Shown here one piece after another: positions 42,698-61,722 of a stretch of 64,000 bases of DNA. Source of the DNA: Terriglobia bacterium (GTDB taxonomy: Bacteria; Acidobacteriota; Terriglobia; 20CM-2-55-15); the NCBI GenBank assembly GCA_965198225.1, contig CBDAOY010000005.1, positions 768,001-832,000 on the forward strand, in the 5' to 3' direction. The position numbers and the translations under genes were made by a program. Below the pieces are notes generated by a model. That model saw only the letters and a list, made by a program, of their open reading frames with translations. It did no database searches and had not been told where the DNA came from. The first letter of the stretch is position 1, and each line of letters begins with the position of its first letter.

Positions 42698-43188
42698 GTG
42701 CGCCGTGAAAGGCGCCATTCCCCAGCGGGTGCGAACCCCGCCCGGCAACTGTCGCTCCAGCCGGTAGCAGTCGGAGCGGACGATGGAGGTAACGACATCG
42801 GCTGAAGCACTCCGATGACAAAGGGCCGCCCTGGGCGGTTCAGCGACCACGCGGGCCGCAACGATGTGAACGCTGCGCAGGCCTCGTAACGAAGCGATGC
42901 GGAAGCCGATCCGCCCGGAATACGGGGAAGGCTGCCAGCGGTCGGGAAGCGAGCGACGCGAGCACCGACCGGTTCCGCCGGGGTAGTAGCGGCGGCACGT
43001 GTGGAAGGGGGGGATGGACGCAACACGGGAAGCCCTGCCGGTGGCGTGGCATGCGCCAACCGACAGCCCGCGAGGGTCAGGTTGGGCCGACAGGGTGGCG
43101 GAGAGGTCCGCAGTACCAGGGAAGCCGGGTAATGCCGGTGGAGGGAAGGGACCTCAGTTCGAGAGCAGCGCATGACGGAGGAAGGGAC

Positions 43189-44415
43189 ATGAGGACTGGC
43201 GAGAGCCTAACAGCCTCGGAGAGAGTTCAGCGACTCCAGACGGCGCTACATGCGAAAGCGAAGGAAGCTCTGGGCTTCCGGTTCTACTCTCTGAGCGACA
43301 AGGTGTGGCGCGACGACGTGCTCGCAGTCGCCTGGCAGGCCGTGCGCCGCAACGGCGGCGCGGCCGGGGTGGACGGCGAGACGGTCGGAGACATCGAGGC
43401 GCTTGGGGTAGACCGGTGGCTGGGAGCACTGGCGCGGGACCTGAAGGAAGGGACCTATCGGCCGCATGCGGTTCGGCAGGTTCTCATCCGAATGCCGAAG
43501 AAGCAACGAGGGAAGTTCCGGCCGTTGGGCATTCCGTGTCTCCGGGATCGGGTGGTGCAGACGGCGGCGATGCTGGTGTTATCGCCGATCTTCGAAGCCG
43601 ACCTGCAACCGGAGCAGTATGCGTACCGGCCGGGCCGAGACGCGCATGATCGCAGGACGGGCCACCGGCGATCTGGTGTTACGCGCGTGCCATCGGCTGC
43701 TGAGGACGGGCCACCGGGAGGTGGTGGACGCCGCCGCACGAACCGGGCGCGTCACGAGCGGAAGGGGACCCCGCAAGGGTCTCCGATCTCGCCGCTGTTC
43801 AGCAACATCTACATGCGGCGCTTCATTCTGGGCTGGAAGGTGCTGGGCTACGCCCGGCACTTCAAGGCGGAAATCGTCAACTACGCGGATGACTTCGCGG
43901 TTCTCTGTCGCGCGCCGGCAGCGGTAATGCTAGCGGCGGTCGAAGCCCTGATGAAACGTCTGAAGTTGGCGATGAACGTTGAGAAGACCCGCTGCTGCCG
44001 GGTGCCGGAGGAATCGATGACGTTCCTCGGCTACCGGATTGGTTGCAACTACCGGCCGGACACGGGTACCGCCTACATAGGCACACGTCCGAGCCGGGAA
44101 AGCGTCCAGAGCATCTGCCGTCGTGTGAGCGAGTTGACCACGCCGCGTCACGCGCTCCTGCCGCCGGAGGTCGTAGTGGGACGCCTCAACCGGTTGCTGA
44201 CCGGTTGGGCGAACTACTTCACCCTGGGACAGGTCAGCCCGGCCTACGAGGCGATTGACCGGCACGCAACTCGGCGGCTGCGCCAGTGGCTCTGCCGTAA
44301 GCACAAGGTGCGGACCGGGAAACACGTGCGCTTCCCGGTCGAGCGGCTCTGGTCCGATTACGGGCTCACGCATCTTGCGCCGCGTACGGCGAGCTTTCCG
44401 TGGGCGAAGGCATGA
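43189..44415 (+). pseudogene. Intron A reverse transcriptase/maturase, internally deleted
   Basis: RPLGIP, GTPQGSPISPL, YADD, GWANYF; the RT3-RT4 region is largely missing. Confidence 0.85.
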
Positions 44416-44867
44416 TCTCGTCCGAGAGCCGGATGCGGGAAATCTGCATGTCCGGTTCGATGAGCGTTGCGCCTTGCAAGCGCATGAGATCCAGTCGCCT
44501 GAGATGGCGGCCGTGGCAGAGCCTAGCCGGCAGCCACGTACCGAGTCTTGCGTGGTGGTCGGTGACGGACACTGCGAAGCGTAGACAGGGAGGGAGTAGG
44601 CCGGAACACCAGTGAACGGAAAGATAGCCCCGAAATCGAACGTGGTTGAAGTAGCCGACCCTGTCGCTCTAGGGGGAAGGCGGAATCGCAGGGCACGCAA
44701 TGGCAAGTGCCCTGGGGTGCTTCCGGGGTTCGTACCGCCGGCATGCAACCAAGGATTTCATGGGAACAAGGGAGATCCGTCAGGTTCAAGCGGAGCTTGT
44801 AGGGTTGGACAAGCCAACAACGCGAGGAAGACCCGAAGGCCTGTCGGAAGTCAGACTGGCTGATAGT

Positions 44868-46096
44868 GCGTGCCTGGCAGCACGCGTTTCCGGCGGGTTA
44901 AAGTCCCGCTCGGCCCGAGGCCACGGGTCGATATCCAACAAGTGGGGGTAATGCCTCACTGGCCGAAGTGTAGACAGGTAGTGCAGATGCCTAAACGGGC
45001 ACGAAGGCGAAAGCCGGATACGGCCAAGGCAAAGCTGGAGCCAGCTACGGAAACTTTGGAGGGCAGGGCGCCCACCGCGAGGTGGGGTCTGAAGGGCATG
45101 AGGAGAACCACCGGGTCGTAATCGACGGGAGCCATCCCGAGGATGAACCGGTCGGCCAAAGATGGGGAATGGTCGAGCCCGCACTATTGGGGCGAAGGCG
45201 CATTGGTTCCACCCCATCGCACCAAGGTGTGTGCGGGCGACACGGTGGAGAAGAGACGCGAGTGACCCAGGGAGGCCTGGTATCGTCCGAGCGGAAGGTA
45301 AGGTCGAGATGATGTGGCACCCGCAGACGAAAGGGCGGGCAACCGAGAAGACAAACATCGACCTAGAGCCCTGCGCGGTAGGTGCGGATATAAGCGAGAG
45401 CGAAATTCCGGCCGACGCGGTGTCAGGAATCGGATCGGGGAATAGTACTCAGGAACGAGACGGCAAACATAAGGTCTCGGATCGTTGCTTCGAGCAGCGG
45501 CGCTGGCGGGTCCAAAAGGCCCGTTGGAGGGGGAAGTCCCCGTACTCAGTCGTGAATGTGCGAGCGATGGGAAACGCGGAGATATCGTGAACTTGGATAG
45601 TTCCCTTAGCGAAAGACCCAAACGCGGTACGAACGAAGCCGCCACCTGCCGCCACACAGCGAATTCCGAACGAGGAGCAACTGAGGAAAGCGGCTTGCGG
45701 GAAAACCGCACGAGCCGTTTGATTGAGCGGACGGTGGAAGGGCCGATCGGCCCGACCACTTTCGACTCTACACTCAGGAACGAGACGGCAAACATAAGGT
45801 CTCGGATCGTTGCTTCGAGCAGCGGCGCTGGCGGGTCCAAAAGGCCCGTTGGAGGGGGAAGTCCCCGTACTCAGTCGTGAATGTGCGAGCGATGGGAAAC
45901 GCGGAGATATCGTGAACTTGGATAGTTCCCTTAGCGAAAGACCCAAACGCGGTACGAACGAAGCCGCCACCTGCCGCCACACAGCGAATTCCGAACGAGG
46001 AGCAACTGAGGAAAGCGGCTTGCGGGAAAACCGCACGAGCCGTTTGATTGAGCGGACGGTGGAAGGGCCGATCGGCCCGACCACTTTCGACTCTAC
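44868..46096 (+). ncRNA. ORF-less group II intron C (904 nt, 44868-45771) plus a tandem copy of its 3' 325 nt
   Basis: DV AAAGCGGCTTGCGGGAAAACCGCACGAGCCGTTT, end GACTCTAC, EBS1 ACTATT at 45183-45188; 45447-45771 equals 45772-46096. Confidence 0.85.
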
Positions 46097-46222
46097 ACTC
46101 CGAGGTCGGGAGAGCCGATCACATGGGGAAGCGGCCAGCAGAAGTGGACTCGTTCTTGGGAAACATGAGCTCCATGCAACGGGAGGATACGGTCCTCTAT
46201 GCAACGAGAGGAACAACCAGTC

Positions 46223-47545
46223 ATGGAAACGAAACTGGAACGAATAGCGGCGAAAGCTCGGAGTGAGCCAAAGCTCCGGTTCACGTCACTGGCGCATCAT
46301 GTCACCCGAGAGCGTGTGTGGAAGAACCTGTGTCAAGTGCCCCGCAACACGGCTCCCGGATGTGATGGTCAGAGGGTACCGGAGGCGAAGGAGGAATTCG
46401 GAGTCTGGGTGGAGCCAATGCTCCAGTCTGTTCACCAGAAGGGATATCGCGCTCCGCCGATTCGGCGGGTGTATATCCCCAAGCCCGGCAAGCAGGAGAA
46501 ACGTCCCCTGGGCGTGCCCTGTGTTCAAGATCGGGCCCTTCAGCGCAGCGTGGCCGAGGTATTGGTCGCCATCTACGAGCAGGACTTCTTGCCCTGTTCC
46601 TTTGGTGGCCGGCCTGGGCTGGGCGCCCACAATGCACTGGCAACCCTCCATGAGGTGATTTCCGGATGCAAGGTGAGTTGGGTGTTGGAGGCGGACTTGA
46701 AGAACTTTTTCGGGAGTTTAGACCATGGATGGCTACTCCGCTTTGTGGAGCATCGAGTCGGAGATCCGCGGATCATCAGTCTGATACGACGATGGTTAAA
46801 GGCGGGCGTTTTCGAAGACGGGGAATTGCATTCGAACGAAGAGGGAACCCCGCAAGGTGGGTCGATCAGCGTTCTGCTGAGCAATCTGTACCTGCATTAT
46901 GTGCTTGACCTGTGGTTTGACCGGATGGTCCGGCCACGCCTGAAGGGTGAAGCGTATCTGGTGCGGTACATCGACGACTTTGTCGTGTGTTTCCAATATC
47001 GGGACGATGCGCTTCGTTTCCAGAACGTTCTGCGCAAGCGACTGGGAAAGTTTGGACTGGTTCCGGAGCCGACCAAGACGAAGCTCGTCGAATTCGGCCG
47101 CTATGCCCAGCGCGATGTCGTCCGGCGCGGGAGAAAACGTCCAGAGACGATCTATTTTCTGGGCATGACCCTGTACTGTACGCGTAATCGCAAAGGCAAT
47201 TTTAGAGTGGGACTGCGAACAGAGAAGTCTCGACTTCGACGCAGTCTGGCTCATCTACGCGGCGTGATGAGGCGAATGCGTCACTTGCCGGTCCGGGAGC
47301 AAGTGCACAATCTGAACCGAGTCTTGCGCGGGCACTACGCCTACTATGGCATTGCCGGGAACCTCCGGGCTCTGCAGCACGTCGCTCGGGCCGTGGAACG
47401 TTACTGGCGCCAAATGCTCAGCAGTCGTAGTCGTGCAGGCTTCGTCCGGTGGGAAGTATTCAACCGGATTCAGCTGCACTTTCCGTTACAGCGTCCCAAG
47501 TTGGCTCTCCGCTATCGGGAGTTCCAGTCTCTCGCTGTGCTGTAA
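46223..47545 (+). CDS. ltrA: Intron B reverse transcriptase/maturase (no En domain)
   Basis: YIPKPG..RPLGVP, EADLKNFF, GTPQGG, RYIDDF, RGHYAYY. Confidence 0.93.
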   Translation: METKLERIAAKARSEPKLRFTSLAHHVTRERVWKNLCQVPRNTAPGCDGQRVPEAKEEFGVWVEPMLQSVHQKGYRAPPIRRVYIPKPGKQEKRPLGVPCVQDRALQRSVAEVLVAIYEQDFLPCSFGGRPGLGAHNALATLHEVISGCKVSWVLEADLKNFFGSLDHGWLLRFVEHRVGDPRIISLIRRWLKAGVFEDGELHSNEEGTPQGGSISVLLSNLYLHYVLDLWFDRMVRPRLKGEAYLVRYIDDFVVCFQYRDDALRFQNVLRKRLGKFGLVPEPTKTKLVEFGRYAQRDVVRRGRKRPETIYFLGMTLYCTRNRKGNFRVGLRTEKSRLRRSLAHLRGVMRRMRHLPVREQVHNLNRVLRGHYAYYGIAGNLRALQHVARAVERYWRQMLSSRSRAGFVRWEVFNRIQLHFPLQRPKLALRYREFQSLAVL

Positions 47546-47631
47546 ATCCAATTCTGAAGAGCGCAGTGCGGGAAATCCGCACGCTGCGTTCTGTGGGAGC
47601 CGGAGGCGGGCAACTGCCTCCGGCCACCCGG

Positions 47632-49038
47632 GCGGATTCGGGCGCCGATTTTGAGAAGCTTCAGACGGATGGTCCCGCACTGGGCATGGGCCATCGCGGT
47701 ATCTTTGAGCCCGAGGCGTCGCAGGGCATGCATGAGCATGTACGCAGCTGAGGAGAGATAGAGCCGGAGCTGATTGGCGCGCATGGTCGCCGCGCTGGTC
47801 CGGTCCGCAAATAGGTCCAACTGCTGTTCCTTGATACGGTTCTCCATGTCGCCCCGCGCGCAGTAGAAGTCCTCATACAAAGCGCGGGCTTGGAAGCGTT
47901 CCGGCGGCAGGGAGGTCACGATGAATCGGGGATTGGCGCCCTTGTCCAGGAACTCCGCCTTGCCGACGACGCGTCGCGCGCGGGTCCAGCTGTTTAGAGT
48001 CCGGTACTGGAAATCCTTAAACACCCGCGCCGGTTTCCCGGTGGCGTTAAACTCCGCTTCCGCCTGAACCATTTCTTCAGCGATTTCTTGCTTGAGACGA
48101 CTGTTCTTGGCCAACCCGATCACATAATCGACCGGATGGGATTCACACCAGGCGAGCAGTTCATCCCTGCAAAAGCCCGAGTCGGCCCGGATGATGATCG
48201 ATACTGTGGGCCACACCTGTCGGATCTGACCGACGATGCGCTCTAACTCATCCACCGCTCCGTCGGCCCCGTCAATGTTGGAACGCCGGAGCCGGGCGCA
48301 CAGCAGATGTTCTCCCGAGAAGATGTACAACGGCAGGTAGCAGTAGTTGCCGTAGTAGCCGTGAAAGAACCGTCCTTCCTGGTTGCCATGGATCGTATCG
48401 TCGGTGGCATCCAGGTCCAGAACGATCTCAGAGGGCTCCGATTCGTGGGCCGCGATAAACGCGTCGACCATCCACCGGTCGATCTTGTCGCCATCCATGG
48501 CGATCTTCTTGTACCGCTCCTGGCCATCGACCTGCTCTGCGGTCAGTTCCAACCGGTTCAGCGTGCACTTGCCTGCCAACGCCTTTCCCCGGTCTCCGGC
48601 CTGCCGCCGGTTTTTTCCCAGTGGATCGGCCTTCTCCACCGCCACGGCCAGCATCGGATCGGTCCGTAGCTGGTCGTGGTCGTTCAGGTCCTCATAGCCC
48701 AAGCACAGTCCATAAATCCGCTGGCCCAACAACTCCTTCACGCTGTGTTCGATCAACCTCGGGTCCCGGTGATCGGTAAAACACTGCTCCAGTCCGGCGA
48801 TCAAACCCGTCCGCTTCTCGACTTCCCTCAACAGCAGAACACCCGCGTCGGAGGTGATCTTTCCGCCGTCGAATCGCGCCTTCACTTTCCGTTGAAAAAG
48901 TCCGTGAAATTCGAACGTGGCTTGCTTACACTCTGTTCTCATAAGGGCCGTCTCCGTTTGGGTTTTTAAACGTTTCTCGTCAAACGCTTTATGCCAAACA
49001 GGGCGGCCTTTTCTGGTCCTATCCGTGAAATATAGGGG
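47632..49038 (-). mobile_element. IS1380-family element, 3'-truncated (transposase from 48942)
   Basis: FDGGKITSDAG, LDLDATDD, RADSGF, RGDMENRIKE; left end CCCCTATATTTCACGGAT. Confidence 0.9.
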
Positions 49039-50769
49039 CTAGCCGGCAGCCACGTACCGAGTCTTGCGTGGTGGTCGGTGACGGACACTGCGAAGCGTAG
49101 ACAGGGAGGGAGTAGGCCGGAACACCAGTGAACGGAAAGATAGCCCCGAAATCGAACGTGGTTGAAGTAGCCGACCCTGTCGCTCTAGGGGGAAGGCGGA
49201 CACTCCGAGGTCGGGAGAGCCGATCACATGGGGAAGCGGCCAGCAGAAGTCGACTTCGGATCTTGGGACTCCCGAGCTCAATGCATTCCGGGACACGGGT
49301 CTATGCAACGAGTCGGCTACAACGTCCAGATCGCTGAAACGACACTGAGCACGAACCTGATCGCCGAACAGCAGGTCGGAGTGAGCCAAGGTCTCCGGTT
49401 CTCGGTCACTGCTCGCATCATGTCACGGCGACAGCGGTCGTGGAAGAACCTGTGGCAAGTGCGACGCAGATCGACGGTCGCGGATGTGATGGCTCTACAA
49501 GTATCGAAGACGATTGAGGACTTCGAAGCCGCCGTGGAGCCAATGCTCCTAGTCTGTTCCAGAAGCCCGATATCGGCGCACGGCCAGATTCGGCGGGTGT
49601 ATATCCCCAAGCCCGGCAAGCAGGAGAAACGTCCCCTGGGCGTGCCCTGTGTTCAGCGATCGGGCCCTTCATCGCGCAGCGTGGCCGAGGTATTGGTCGC
49701 GCATCTACGAGCACGTACTTCTTGTCAGTTACTTTGGTGGCCGGCCTGGGCTGGGCGCCCGCAATGCAGAGGCTGCGGTCATGACGCGATTTCCGGATGT
49801 ACCAAGAACACCTATCGGCGCATGGACGCGACTTCGAAGAACTTTTTCGGAAGTTTAGACGATGGATGGCTACTCCGCTTTGTGGAGCATCGAGTCGGAG
49901 ATCCGCGGATCATCAGTCTGATACGACGATGGTTAAAGGCGGGCGTTTTCGAAGACGGGGAATTGCATTCGAACGAAGAGGGAACCCCGCAAGGTGGGTC
50001 GATCAGCGTTCTGCTGAGCAATCTGTACCTGCATTATGTGCTTGACCTGTGGTTTGACCGGATGGTCCGGCCACGCCTGAAGGGTGAAGCGTATCTGGTG
50101 CGGTACATCGACGACTTTGTCGTGTGTTTCCAATATCGGGACGATGCGCTTCGTTTCCAGAACGTTCTGCGCAAGCGACTGGGAAAGTTTGGACTGGTTC
50201 CGGAGCCGACCAAGACGAAGCTCGTCGAATTCGGCCGCTATGCCCAGCGCGATGTCGTCCGGCGCGGGAGAAAACGTCCAGAGACGATCTATTTTCTGGG
50301 CATGACCCTGTACTGTACGCGTAATCGCAAAGGCAATTTTAGAGTGGGACTGCGAACAGAGAAGTCTCGACTTCGACGCAGTCTGGCTCATCTACGCGGC
50401 GTGATGAGGCGAATGCGTCACTTGCCGGTCCGGGAGCAAGTGCACAATCTGAACCGAGTCTTGCGCGGGCACTACGCCTACTATGGCATTGCCGGGAACC
50501 TCCGGGCTCTGCAGCACGTCGCTCGGGCCGTGGAACGTTACTGGCGCCAAATGCTCAGCAGTCGTAGTCGTGCAGGCTTCGTCCGGTGGGAAGTATTCAA
50601 CCGGATTCAGCTGCACTTTCCGTTACAGCGTCCCAAGTTGGCTCTCCGCTATCGGGAGTTCCAGTCTCTCGCTGTGCTGTAAATCCAATTCTGAAGAGCG
50701 CAGTGCGGGAAATCCGCACGCTGCGTTCTGTGGGAGCCGGAGGCGGGCAACTGCCTCCGGCCACCCGGT
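49039..50769 (+). mobile_element. Group II intron B copy 2: 5'-clipped, domain I-III deletion, RT with a scrambled 5' part
   Basis: 49039-49200 matches 44523-44684; from about 49862 identical to copy 1. Confidence 0.85.
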
Positions 50770-51037
50770 GCGACTGGAAACGAAGCCACGGCGAGGAGTG
50801 AGGCACCGGAATCGGCGAAAGCCACCGGCAACAGCTACCCCCTTTGCCTACCGCCACCGCGCCAGTCGTCGACTCTACCCCCCTGCCGGACTCGACCCCT
50901 TCCTACATCGAGGTGGAGCAGCCCCACAATAGCTTCAACGAGTTCGCCTGCGGCGCACTTGGAAAACCGCATCAGATTTTCTGGTTCCCCTCAGTTTCCA
51001 GCTGGAAGCTCAAGCCGCCGGGGGGGGAGCAACGCTG

Positions 51038-57973: not shown

Positions 57974-58166
57974 GTGCACCGTGAGAAGGCGCCAATCCTC
58001 AGCGGGTGCGAATCCCGCCCGGCAACTGTCGCTCCAGTCGGTAGCAATCGGAGCGGATGGTGGAGGTAACAACATCGTCTGAAGCACTCCGATGACAAAG
58101 GGCCGCCTCGGGCGGCTCAGCGACCACACAGGCCACAACGCGAGTAAACGCCGAGCAGGCCTCGTA
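57974..58166 (+). mobile_element. 5' fragment of a group II intron related to intron A (intron D)
   Basis: Collinear with 42698-42888; broken by IS1111. Confidence 0.85.
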
Positions 58167-59304: not shown

Positions 59305-61722
59305 GGGGTCATCGCAAGGTTTGTACCTGAAATTACTCTAAGGGAGGATCTGGCGAATAATTGGACTGCGGAGCCTCGTTGATCAATCCGATCAGGATGC
59401 TGCGGCCCTCGTCGGTATGGAATGCCGCCCGGGCGGCGAGATCAATCGCCGTTCCCCTGTCGTCGGGCACGAAGGGCCGCAGCCCAAGGTGCCGGATGGC
59501 CAACTGCCTGTGGGACGAACGCGTCGCGTTCCGGGTGCCGTAACCAGCCAGGGCCGAGGTGACGAAGAAGCGCGATATGAATCGCCAATCCAAGCCGGTT
59601 TTCAGCGCTTCTCCGCGTGCAGATCAGATCCAGATCGTCATCGGCCAGAACGTAATTCCGTTCCAGCGAGGCGGTGTCGGAGAGAACCCCGAACAAGGTT
59701 TCGCGAACGGAGGCCGACACTAGATGTCGTGAAGCCATGGCATGTCCCAAAAATGCTGGGGTCTATTTTGAGACTGCCCATAATATAGAAACGAATAAAG
59801 AGACACTTCGAAAGCCCGGAATGGAGGTGAAATGGCCCATCCTGAAACCGTCCCTGAAACGAACCAGACTGTGTGAAAAGTCCAAGTCGTGGATCGCTGA
59901 TCCGGCAACACCGAAGGGCAAGCACGATGACGGACCCGTGGCGACGCAGATCACTCGGGGCTGCCAGCCTTTTCGGTGGCGTGAGGTGTTGCTGTGACTG
60001 GGAAACGCGGGATGGAGGCGGATTGTTGCGCCAAAAACAGGCGGATTACCCGGTCAAACCGCTGCGACGGCAATCAAGGCGGGAATTCCTACGAGGTTGA
60101 TTGCGCGGCGCATGTTGTAGGCCAAGGCGGTGAGGCTGAACTCCCCGCGGACATTGCCGAGTCGGCGCGTCAGGAACGCGCCTTGGCCCATCCACTGCTT
60201 GATCGAACCGAAGGGATGCTCGACCGACTCCCGGCGACGATCCATCACCTCGGGCCGGGCGGCGAGACGGTTCGCCATGCGCTCCATCGTTGCTTCGTTC
60301 TCGAAGCGCGTGATGCGCCGATAGGTGTTCTTGGTACATCGTTCGCGTAGACCGCAGCCTCTGCATGCGGCGCGGTTGGCGTAACTGACAAGATACGTGC
60401 CTGTGCGCGACTTACCGACGCTTCCGCGATACAACGGCACCAGGCGCTCACCAGCGGGGCACCGGTAGGTGTCCGTGGAGTCGTCGTATTGGAAATCGGA
60501 CTTCGGAAAGTGGCCACTGCGTCTGGCCGTGCTCCGGTCGGGCTTCGGAACGTAGGGCGTGATCCCGGCGGCTTCGCAGTCCTCAATGTCTTCGATCTTG
60601 TAGTAGCCTCGGTCCGCGACCGCGTCGATCTCGTCGACAGCCAAGTTCTCCCGAGCCGCTGTGGCCGTCTCCGCGAGCAGACCGAGGTCCGAGACCTTGC
60701 TATGGACCTGCTGTTCGGCGATCAGGTTGTGCTCAGTGTCGACAGCGATCTGGACGTTGTAGCCGACTCCGACCCGTGTCCCGGAATGCATTGACCGGGA
60801 GTCCGGATCCGTAAGCGACAGCTGGGCTTCTCCGGTATCGTCCAGCGTCTGCCGATGCCCCTCCAAGGTCTCCTTTCTCTTACGGATCGATGCGATCTTC
60901 TCCTGAAGATCCGCCACGGCAGCCGCTCTGCCGCCGGCATCATCCGCGTCGGCCTCGTTCACCTGGTCGAGGTAGCGGTCGAGTCGGTCGTCGATACGCT
61001 GCAGGTCCGTCTTCAGCTTGGCCCGCGTGAAGTTGCGGTCCCGGTGGTTCACCGCCTTGATGCGCGTGCCGTCCACGGCGATCAACTCCCGCCCGTACAG
61101 GTCGAGTTCCCGGCACAACCGCACGAACCGCCGAAACACCGCCCGGAACGCATGCCGATTGTCGCGCCGGAAGTCGGCGATCGTCTTGAAGTCGGGCTTC
61201 AGCTGGCGTAGCAGCCAGATCGCCTCGAGGTTGCGATGCGTCTCTGTCTCCAGCCTGCGGCTCGACCGAATACGATTCAGATACCCGTAGATATACAGCT
61301 TCAGCAGATCCGCGGGATCGTAGCCTGGACGGCCCTTGTCGTTGGGCCGAACGCGCTGGAATCCAGCCGCCTCAAGGTCGAGACCGTCGACGAATGCATC
61401 AATGAAACGGACCGGGTTGTCCGGTCCCACGTAGTCGTCCACAGTATCGGGCAGAAGCAGAAGCTGGGAACGGTCTTCACCGGTGATATGTGCCATGACA
61501 CATTTTACCAACCGCCATGGGGAACCTGATGCCAGTTCACCGACTCCCGCCCGGCTGTCGCCGACTTTTCACACAGTCTGGAACGTTAAAGAGACGGACG
61601 GCCCGGCCCGCAACGGTGACATCCTCGGTTATGCCCGGGTCTCGACTGCGGCACAGGATGCCGCCAGCCAGCAGGATCGGCTGCGGGAGGCCGGCGCCAT
61701 TCGCGTGTTCGTCGACGTGATT
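59305..61722. mobile_element. Tn3-family remnant: 38-bp TIR 59305-59342, tnpA N-terminal fragment (-, from ~59740), res region, tnpR N-terminal fragment (+, ~61610-61722)
   Basis: GGGGTCATCGCAAGGTTTGTACCTGAAATTACTCTAAG; RRSAENRLGLAIHIALLRH; GYARVST. Confidence 0.8.
59865..61580 (-). mobile_element. IS1182-family element, apparently intact (transposase 60054-61496)
   Basis: IRs CAGACTGTGTGAAAAGTC / GACTTTTCACACAGTCTG; GAAC duplication; VDGTRI, ADRGY, VEHPFG. Confidence 0.93.

Follow-up and report, generated by a model that had tools for sequence, protein, structure and literature searches.

A 64-kb window of a Terriglobia bacterium genome (GenBank assembly GCA_965198225.1, contig CBDAOY010000005.1, positions 768,001 to 832,000) contains a group II intron, B, that is interrupted by a second element, C. 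C has no open reading frame (ORF) and ends in a perfect tandem repeat of 325 nt. What is C, how did it come to lie inside another intron, and how did its repeat arise? An earlier note, made from the sequence alone, had described C as a nonautonomous group II intron whose exon-binding site 1 (EBS1) is directed at domain III (D3) of group II introns, including its own. Group II introns are thought to persist in harmless sites, and other mobile elements are known refuges for them. The analysis reported here makes it probable that C is a nonautonomous intron whose EBS1 pairs with a conserved D3 loop of group II introns and that the window copy is a self-twintron that lacks one 5' half.

The window was compared with the whole genome from which it comes (G000; nine contigs, 6.4 Mb). 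The contigs of G000 are cited as C4: to C9: followed by positions; these labels are separate from the name of intron C. L numbers denote compared loci, G020 is a genome placed in another genus, and G032 is a genome with an ORF-containing homolog of C. "Relatives" are the 44 loci that encode reverse transcriptase (RT) relatives of C, 24 of which have a recognizable 5' end and EBS1 hairpin. The other 20, including verrucomicrobial RT relatives (~41% identity), gave no regular-expression match for the 5' end and hairpin and were excluded from the counts. The 5' end of the L049-L062 group was placed by means of L058 and a 14-nt 5' alignment. A slash within a sequence marks a junction or cut.

Boundaries and ribozyme features of intron C

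In the window, C occupies positions 44868 to 46096 (1,229 nt). Host B reads GCTGATAGT (44859-44867) and is followed by GCGTG; C terminates in ...GACTCTAC at 46096, and B resumes with ACTCCGAGG (46097-46105). The features of C and of its target are as follows.

44862 to 44867, plus strand: intron-binding site 1 (IBS1), GATAGT, within the internal loop of D3 in B; complementary to ACUAUU, the -6 position being a G.U wobble
44868 to 45446, plus strand: 5' part of C, 579 nt, with the GCGUG 5' end, D1, D2, and the D3 5' strand as far as AAUAGU; aligns to ORF-containing relatives
45177 to 45193, plus strand: EBS1 hairpin, 9-nt loop GCACUAUUG, stem GCCC (45177-45180) with GGGC (45190-45193), ACUAUU at 45183-45188; supported by covariation
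45441 to 45446, plus strand: D3 loop of C itself, AAUAGU, the self-homing site and a perfect complement of EBS1; followed by ACTC
45447 to 45771, plus strand: unit 1, 325 nt, with the apical part and 3' strand of D3, the ORF-deleted D4, D5 (45688-45720), and D6 (~45725-45771)
45772 to 46096, plus strand: unit 2, 325 nt, identical to unit 1, with D5 at 46013-46045 and the 3' end CUCUAC

Tandem Repeats Finder placed the repeat at 45447-46100 (period 325, 2.0 copies, 100% matches), and a second repeat search was concordant. As the earlier note had stated, the repeat begins at C's own AATAGT/ACTC and stops at the intron 3' end. The window copy consists of one 5' half and two complete 3' halves, each with its own D5 and D6.

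The boundaries of C were fixed independently in three ways. Self-nested copies read ...GGGGAATAGT/GCGTG...CTCTAC/ACTCAGG, compared to GGGGAATAGTACTCAGG where the sequence is uninterrupted. One host family has seven empty sites, which read GTCATAGT/AGCCCGG, compared to one that is filled. Finally, RNA contigs omit exactly 904 nt, the length of single-unit C. These three lines of evidence establish the noncanonical GCGTG 5' end that had been claimed for C. GCGUG aligns with GUGUG or GUGCG in 23 relatives, and U2 of the 5' end is replaced by C in all 20 5' parts found in G000 and in L038.

A minimum free energy (MFE) fold of the whole of C was used for D5 and local hairpins only, not as a domain model. 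In this fold, D5 has 13 bp, a 5-nt GAAAA loop, a CG bulge, and an AGC triad at 45689-45691. It is 75% identical to D5 of intron A, the outermost intron of the locus, and is also similar to D5 of B and of a second B copy, B'. For D6, manual pairing allows an A to bulge out seven nt from the 3' end; the MFE helix is without a bulge. The homologous D5-D6 regions of the relatives L056, L058, and L062 pass Rfam model RF00029. A match of C to the Rfam rmf family was spurious and was discarded.

Probable splicing of C in public sequence runs

At least half of the words of window positions 44600-46300 are present in 16 public runs, including two metatranscriptomes. Contigs, not reads, from two RNA runs and two DNA runs were aligned to a single-unit C in B (L005:1100-2800). 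In both RNA runs, a contig joins L005 position 1504 to 2409 and omits 904 nt (depths of 11.7 and 5.4); the shorter side of the spliced joint is 30 nt. The exon-joined form was found in both RNA runs and in neither of the two DNA runs, despite the far greater depth of the latter. The rejoined site has no match in G000, that is, no empty B site exists there as DNA, and the RNA joint is therefore best read as ligated B exons. C appears to be spliced at the predicted boundaries, and the join restores B exactly as had been proposed. Loose ends of contigs in the runs match the ORF junctions of the full-length copy described below and other host flanks.

Covariation of EBS1 with the 5' exon

The EBS1 sequence ACTATT and its hairpin were present in the window as the earlier note had placed them, as were the pairing with GATAGT in B and the perfect pairing with AATAGT in C. 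A given 6-mer is expected ~0.14 times by chance in 579 nt; chance is excluded for the EBS1 match by covariation among copies and relatives. The assignment is based on this covariation and not on a D1 model, and a position in the Id3 loop is therefore not claimed.

Among the relatives, 23 of 24 carry ACTATG, and wherever their flank reaches far enough (21 loci), the base at -6 is C. The sole ACTATC, in L058, follows GATAGT. The search for exons of homologs showed that 22 of 23 relatives have a 5' exon with TAGT as its end; in the remaining one the end is TAGG. In G032, the ORF-containing homolog (D1 77% identical, RT 54% identical) has the same hairpin with the loop CCAAAG and follows CTTTGG. 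This target led us to reject it as a D3-homing member, and it was kept as a control for covariation.

Within G000, EBS1 is ACTATT in 14 of 20 5' parts and ACTATG in 5, and one has no hairpin match. The five ACTATG copies, which include both full-length ones, follow CATAGT (three), CGTAAT (one), or GATAGT (one, a mismatch). Upstream of the ACTATT copies stands GATAGT in eight cases, AATAGT or AGTAGT in four, and CGTAGT in two. A copy in G020 with ACTATG follows CGTAGT. ACTATT is found in all three inner copies of nests that retain the hairpin and in all copies in B. Pairs between EBS1 position 6 and exon position -6 are thus G:C in 21 of 21 and C:G in 1 of 1 relatives, with U opposite A or G in G000, and the G-to-U change in EBS1 correlates with use of the B site and of C's own loop. 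We consider it very likely that EBS1 is correctly assigned and that C belongs to a lineage that homes to D3.

The change from ACUAUG to ACUAUU would make position 6 compatible with either A or G at exon position -6. ACUAUU would then fit GAUAGU of B by wobble and C's own AAUAGU perfectly, so that C could invade both B and itself. Several relatives (L044, L047, L048, L063, L064, L068, and L078) have an altered D3 loop of their own (CGAGGTA, CGCGGTA, CACGGTA, or CATATTA), and relatives that keep AATAGTA carry ACTATG, a mismatch with A at -6. The altered loop or the mismatch is possibly a protection against self-insertion that the ACTATT variant would lack.

The domain III target and its hosts

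The target of C and its relatives is the motif (A or G)UAGU/A in an internal loop of the last stem-loop before D4 or the ORF, 68 to 306 nt upstream of host ORFs. When the interrupted sites were reconstituted, 8 of 21 folded, from 5' to 3', as the first strand of a basal stem, an (N)AUAGUA loop, an apical hairpin, GAAG, and the returning basal strand; in the remaining 13, the domain is longer than the 75-nt folding window or the flanks are chimeric. In B the fold has the basal strand CUGGCUG followed by the loop AUAGU. The basal stems vary in sequence while their pairing is kept: CUGGCUG-CGGCCAG in B, and UCCGCUC-GGGCGGA, GGUC-GACC, CCGCGUC-GACGCGG, CUCCGGC-GCCGGGG, and CAUCGGC-GCCGGUG elsewhere. 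The target loop matches what we take to be the D3 internal loop of the Oceanobacillus iheyensis intron.

Hosts were scanned with Rfam at 14 loci of G000 and at 20 loci of relatives. Of the 14 G000 loci, 12 have a D1D4 match (types -6, -3, and -2) just upstream of C, and hosts of the C family there have D1D4 upstream and an RT or D5 downstream. Among the relatives, a host D1D4 match (types -6, -3, -2, and -4) lies 60 to 400 nt upstream at 15 of 20 loci, with a host D5 ~1.3 to 1.5 kb downstream of the inner intron in several. The hosts thus belong to several intron classes, and the sites share a D3-type context. D3-homing relatives are found in Terriglobia, Desulfobacterales and other "delta" metagenome-assembled genomes, Alpha- and Gammaproteobacteria, Nitrospinota, Neomarinimicrobiota, and Ignavibacteriaceae; they include the isolates Desulforhopalus sp. 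IMCC35007 and Sedimenticola hydrogenitrophicus. Judged from this distribution of sequences, the D3-homing habit appears to be old and widespread.

The target would be recognized as DNA. Filled sites mostly start with AC after the cut, while sites starting with AG are mostly empty (seven of eight in a family resembling class C [IIC] introns, both A copies that have the site, and C4:105887), a pattern that hints at recognition of +2. Nearly all copies lie in introns. This bias could come from recognition of structure, from hitchhiking on host introns (C and B seem to travel together into copies of A), or from selection against other insertions.

The IIC-like family, of type D1D4-3, is itself inserted after terminators composed of a hairpin and a T run (...TTTCTTTG/GTGCGCC). 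Its loci are C5:717015, C7:488848, C7:1072107, C8:882678, C8:1094046, C9:612217, C9:337212, and C7:81384. One of its eight D3 sites, CATAGT/AG, is occupied, and the occupant is a diverged C copy.

The C family and its autonomous parent

C is a member of a multicopy family: 31 BLAST matches in G000 resolve into 18 loci. Five are simple 904-nt copies, one more has a small internal duplication, and several others are fragments. At three C-family loci, a 1,251-nt segment corresponds to an RT gene within D4. Two copies are full length (C5:501714-503866 and C6:343788-345941; 2,153 and 2,154 nt), and each contains an uninterrupted frame of 479 codons whose product has RVT_1 (2.8e-33) and GIIM (1.5e-19) and lacks an endonuclease domain. 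C is 96.1 to 96.8% identical to them over 904 columns with a sole gap of 1,249 nt after C position 795, and it retains D4 sequence on both sides of this deletion. No RT remnant was found in C with three RT queries (best tblastn E = 0.47). By this alignment, C is an ORF-deletion derivative of full-length, RT-encoding siblings, which bears out the claim that it is nonautonomous; the autonomous parent would have lost 1,249 nt of D4 to give the 904-nt C.

Several near-identical C copies are found at different sites, from which we infer mobilization in trans by an intron-encoded protein (IEP). The likeliest donor is a cognate full-length copy, and it is somewhat probable that its RT is the one supplied in trans. 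Host intron B could have served instead: its ORF is open, with RVT_1 and GIIM, it is transcribed in cis with C, and promiscuous IEPs are known in Thermosynechococcus elongatus (Mohr et al. 2010, PMC2882425, in excerpt). However, the genome holds two open cognate RT copies, D4 sequence is kept on both sides of C's ORF deletion, and the C family also occupies hosts of types D1D4-3 and D1D4-2, which are not B. We therefore find it doubtful that the RT of B, rather than that of the cognate copy, mobilizes C.

Three loci have arrangements of their own. At C4:97368-98438, unit positions 1-292 are followed by unit positions 132-325, and at C8:902508-903484, a 5' part covering positions 1-520 is followed by 455-578; self-homing does not explain either duplication. 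A C-like intron at L033 (G032:C65), positions 778-870, is without an EBS1 loop, its hairpin being closed by GUCCGCC-GGCGGAC. It begins directly after the D5-D6 3' end of another intron and is in tandem with it, not nested.

Self-insertion and the origin of the 5'-3'-3' copy

C copies nested in C copies occur at four loci of G000, with the form 5'-5'-3'-3' at C5:62160-64012, C6:840163-841975, and C8:158737-160383 and the form 5'-5'-3' at C4:150750-152235. The corresponding 5'-5' junction, ...GGGGAATAGT/GCGTGCC, was found at these four sites and at one in G020, so that 2 of the 400 genomes of the class have it. At C8:158737, identity to the reference is 98 to 99% for the outer copy; the inner copy (C8:159308) is 88.6% identical in its 5' part and 80.9% in its unit; since the inner copy has diverged from the reference, this locus is an insertion and not a duplication. 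The inner and outer units at C6:840163 differ at 10 aligned positions (five substitutions and a 5-nt insertion), while those of the C5:62160 twintron are identical to each other, as in the window copy. A second 5'-3'-3' copy, at C5:3834-4942, is truncated, and its units have the haplotypes 144A/146C and 144G/146A. In all, 3'-3' junctions occur at five G000 loci beyond the window. A C-in-C twintron in B is also present at L034 (G020:C24:1863-3670) and is 98 to 100% identical to that of G000; its presence in another genus suggests recent transfer or contigs shared between bins.

The tandem unit could in principle have come from replication slippage, with no retrohoming, at the 4-nt microhomology ACTC (45447-45450 and 46097-46100); this microhomology is present, and the two units are identical. 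However, the duplication ends at the self-homing site and at the 3' splice site to the nucleotide, exact C-in-C nests exist at four loci, and the units of C5:3834 are of different haplotypes, which is impossible by slippage. We regard slippage as very improbable.

A misassembly has also been considered, in which the true locus is a simple C or a full twintron and the near-identical repetition of the A-B-C block misled the assembler. The units match each other at 100%, other copies of B with C are 99 to 100% identical, no joint between units is among those listed for contigs of the runs, and the unit-unit junction has no match in metagenome contigs. In contrast, 3'-3' junctions were assembled at the five further loci, whole units differ at C6:840163 and C8:158737 (inner, 80.9%), the truncated second unit at C5:3834 is of another haplotype, the separate assembly of G020 has a self-twintron, and the genome was resolved into nine contigs despite many kilobase-scale repeats. 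An artifact is therefore unlikely.

We consider it probable that the tandem unit in the window arose by self-insertion. In that case the simplest history would be insertion of C into B, insertion of C into C to give a 5'-5'-3'-3' twintron, and then loss of one 5' half to leave the 5'-3'-3' form. Unit 1 would be the 3' half of the inner copy and unit 2 that of the outer copy. The loss would most likely have occurred by homologous recombination between the two 579-nt 5' halves, which are near-identical direct repeats. C copies plainly recombine with one another: at C4:150750-152235 and C5:889958-890863, the left flank of a D1D4-2-type host is joined to the right flank of B, so that halves of unrelated host introns have apparently been fused by recombination between C copies. 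In G020, the D1D4-2-type host is intact around a C copy with EBS1 ACTATG (L035). Nesting is likewise balanced by recombinational deletion in Methanosarcina acetivorans, according to excerpts of the review by Zimmerly and Semper (PMC4424553).

A two-unit copy might instead arise at the RNA level. Splicing from the inner 5' splice site to the outer 3' splice site would release a two-unit RNA able to retrohome to D3 of B, so that no DNA recombination would be needed and the two-unit form would itself be mobile. The two-unit copy at C5:3834 stands at an unrelated, nonintron site with an empty paralog at C8:20138, where one insertion is more parsimonious than three successive events, and C.te.I1 of Clostridium tetani is known to have several 3' splice sites from repeated DV/VI units (PMC4424553, in excerpt). 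On the other hand, the lariat that this route calls for is a proposal only, and recombination among C copies is clearly active, as the chimeric loci attest, in which an E-type flank on the left meets the B flank on the right. Since both routes predict that unit 1 is inner and unit 2 is outer, sequence cannot separate them. We rate the RNA-level route as possible, though tentatively so. Of the two steps that the earlier note had suggested, retrohoming of C into itself agrees with the nests at four G000 loci, and the subsequent loss of a 5' half is not separable from the RNA-level route.

The three-deep nest in the window

B (44467-47631) is inserted in the D5-D6 region of A, which makes the locus a nest three introns deep, with C in B and B in A. 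The features around C are the following.

42698 to 44466, plus strand: intron A, outermost, from its 5' end GTGCGCC to the insertion point of B; Rfam D1D4-4 at 42723-42866
43051 to 44415, plus strand: RT ORF of intron A, RVT_1 and GIIM
44467 to 44867, plus strand: 5' segment of intron B (TTGCGCC...), D1 through the D3 5' strand; Rfam D1D4-6 at 44502-44736, 137 bits; filled compared to empty A sites
46097 to 47631, plus strand: 3' segment of intron B, with the rest of D3 (...GAAG-CGGCCAG), D4, and D5-D6; Rfam D5-D6 at 47557-47633
46199 to 47545, plus strand: RT ORF of intron B in D4, RVT_1 and GIIM
47512 to 48942, minus strand: insertion sequence (IS) transposase, DDE_Tnp_1_4, which abuts the 3' end of B and stands in place of the remainder of A at this locus
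49013 to 50770, plus strand: B', a second B copy, without the equivalent of 44685-46095; reads GGCGGA/CACTCCGAGG

Empty A copies elsewhere in G000 read GATGAGCG/GCGACTGG. The 5' end of B, UUGCG, is noncanonical; empty A copies are present in G000 and empty B copies are absent (C5:743404 and C6:6068 compared). The base before ACTCC in B' is C, which matches the last base of C, where an empty B would carry T. On the evidence of this single base, B' may descend from a C-containing B by imprecise deletion. The IS at 47512-48942 separates B from B', and its end sequence recurs at C8:201963, C9:18301, and C6:491191. The window also has a second DDE transposase gene (60054-61511, minus strand) and a further A-like D1D4-4 intron 5' region (58000-58143). 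In G000, tblastn with three queries found ~35 RT loci.

Discussion

Several observations weigh against reading C as a D3-homing intron that has inserted into itself. The D3 assignment comes from position, folding, and a loop consensus and not from a full structural model. RF00029 gave no match to C even at E ≤ 10, and the best Rfam D1-D4 match of C, to RF02001 (D1D4-3), scores 24.5 bits compared to a cutoff of 32, a gathering score that is a detection threshold and not a structural criterion. Covariation is imperfect: GATAGT precedes a full-length ACTATG copy, and CGTAGT precedes two ACTATT copies, both at recombinant loci. A target of 6 to 7 nt is insufficient for intron specificity, as hundreds of such sites are expected in 6.4 Mb, and many matching D3 sites are empty (seven of eight in one host family and all of the A copies listed). 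One C copy, at C5:3834, occupies a nonintron site with the empty paralog C8:20138, and the specificity for introns put forward in the earlier note accordingly holds for the 12 of 14 scanned loci with group II hosts and not for this copy. RNA and DNA were sequenced in separate studies, and a strain with an empty site, or DNA in the RNA libraries, would mimic splicing. Finally, the joints listed for contigs of the four runs aligned to the single-unit reference L005 include none that goes back, the mark of a 3'-3' junction, and a scan of metagenome contigs gave no match for either the unit-unit or the 5'-5' junction.

Homing into group II introns, ORF-less copies served in trans, and recombinational pruning are already known. 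Excerpts of the review of these systems (PMC4424553) describe repeated site-specific homing of group II introns, including ORF-less ones, into group II introns of M. acetivorans, with as many as five introns nested in one another, deletions through homologous recombination, and a perpetual homing site. In contrast, the site of C is a D3 ribozyme loop that the invader itself also carries and that is conserved over at least four Rfam D1D4 types. The M. acetivorans sites reportedly lie in the ORFs of related introns, to go by the title of a 2003 paper by Dai and Zimmerly.

In T. elongatus, ORF-less TeI3 introns in TeI4 are deletion derivatives that exist alongside RT-encoding kin; they are mobilized and spliced in trans and multiply by entering a second mobile intron at a conserved site (Mohr et al. 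2010, PMC2882425, in excerpt). As given in those excerpts, that site lies within DIV, between the first and second ATG, in a single related family, whereas C enters D3 of unrelated host classes and inserts into itself. C. tetani C.te.I1 combines a single 5' half with repeats of the 3' unit, and every repeat has DV/DVI and a 3' splice site (PMC4424553, in excerpt). Its repeats serve alternative splicing of a host gene, so far as the excerpts describe them, while the repeat of C would be a by-product of self-insertion within another intron. The Trichodesmium twintron is a bacterial intron-in-intron with sequential splicing in RNA (Pfreundt and Hess 2015, PMC4649490, in excerpt). Its inner intron, as excerpted, lies in domain I of a single host, whereas C is a multicopy family aimed at a conserved motif.

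Class C (IIC) introns pair with their exon over a short EBS1-IBS1 stretch, use an RT that lacks an endonuclease domain, and have a target set by structured nucleic acid context and not by a long sequence. C resembles them in its short EBS1 pairing, in the endonuclease-free RT of its full-length copies, and in a target set by structured context. Unlike them, its D5 triad is AGC and not CGC, its pairing is 5 to 6 bp, and it inserts in a loop between stems and not after a terminator hairpin. An assignment of C to class IIC was rejected, as its targets are D3 loops and not sites after terminator-like hairpins.

In excerpts of the sources consulted, documented intron-in-intron sites lie in D1, DIV, or the ORF (PMC4424553, PMC2882425, PMC4649490, and PMC4476101). 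Homing to a D3 loop, a host range that crosses classes, and a self-targeting EBS1 variant were not found in the literature searched, which did not cover supplements or the group II intron database. We hold it to be an evenly balanced proposition that C belongs to a widespread, undescribed hyperparasitic clade that homes to a constrained D3 loop and that the G-to-U change in EBS1 ended its self-immunity.

DIII provides an adenosine pair that stacks beneath DV, according to an excerpted structural account (PMC4476101). If our reading is correct, homing to a motif that no host intron can afford to lose would amount to a general form of intron-on-intron parasitism. The host range would extend across intron classes and phyla, and hosts could not easily mutate the target away. 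Host introns would be able neither to fold nor to move until the guest splices, and recombination between guest copies would shuffle unrelated host introns. The natural series of variants at EBS1 and -6 may inform target recognition by endonuclease-free RTs. A one-base change in EBS1 would turn the guest on itself, and the two-unit copy in the window would be a new form generated in this way, which would illustrate how repeated DV/DVI units can arise naturally in a single step.

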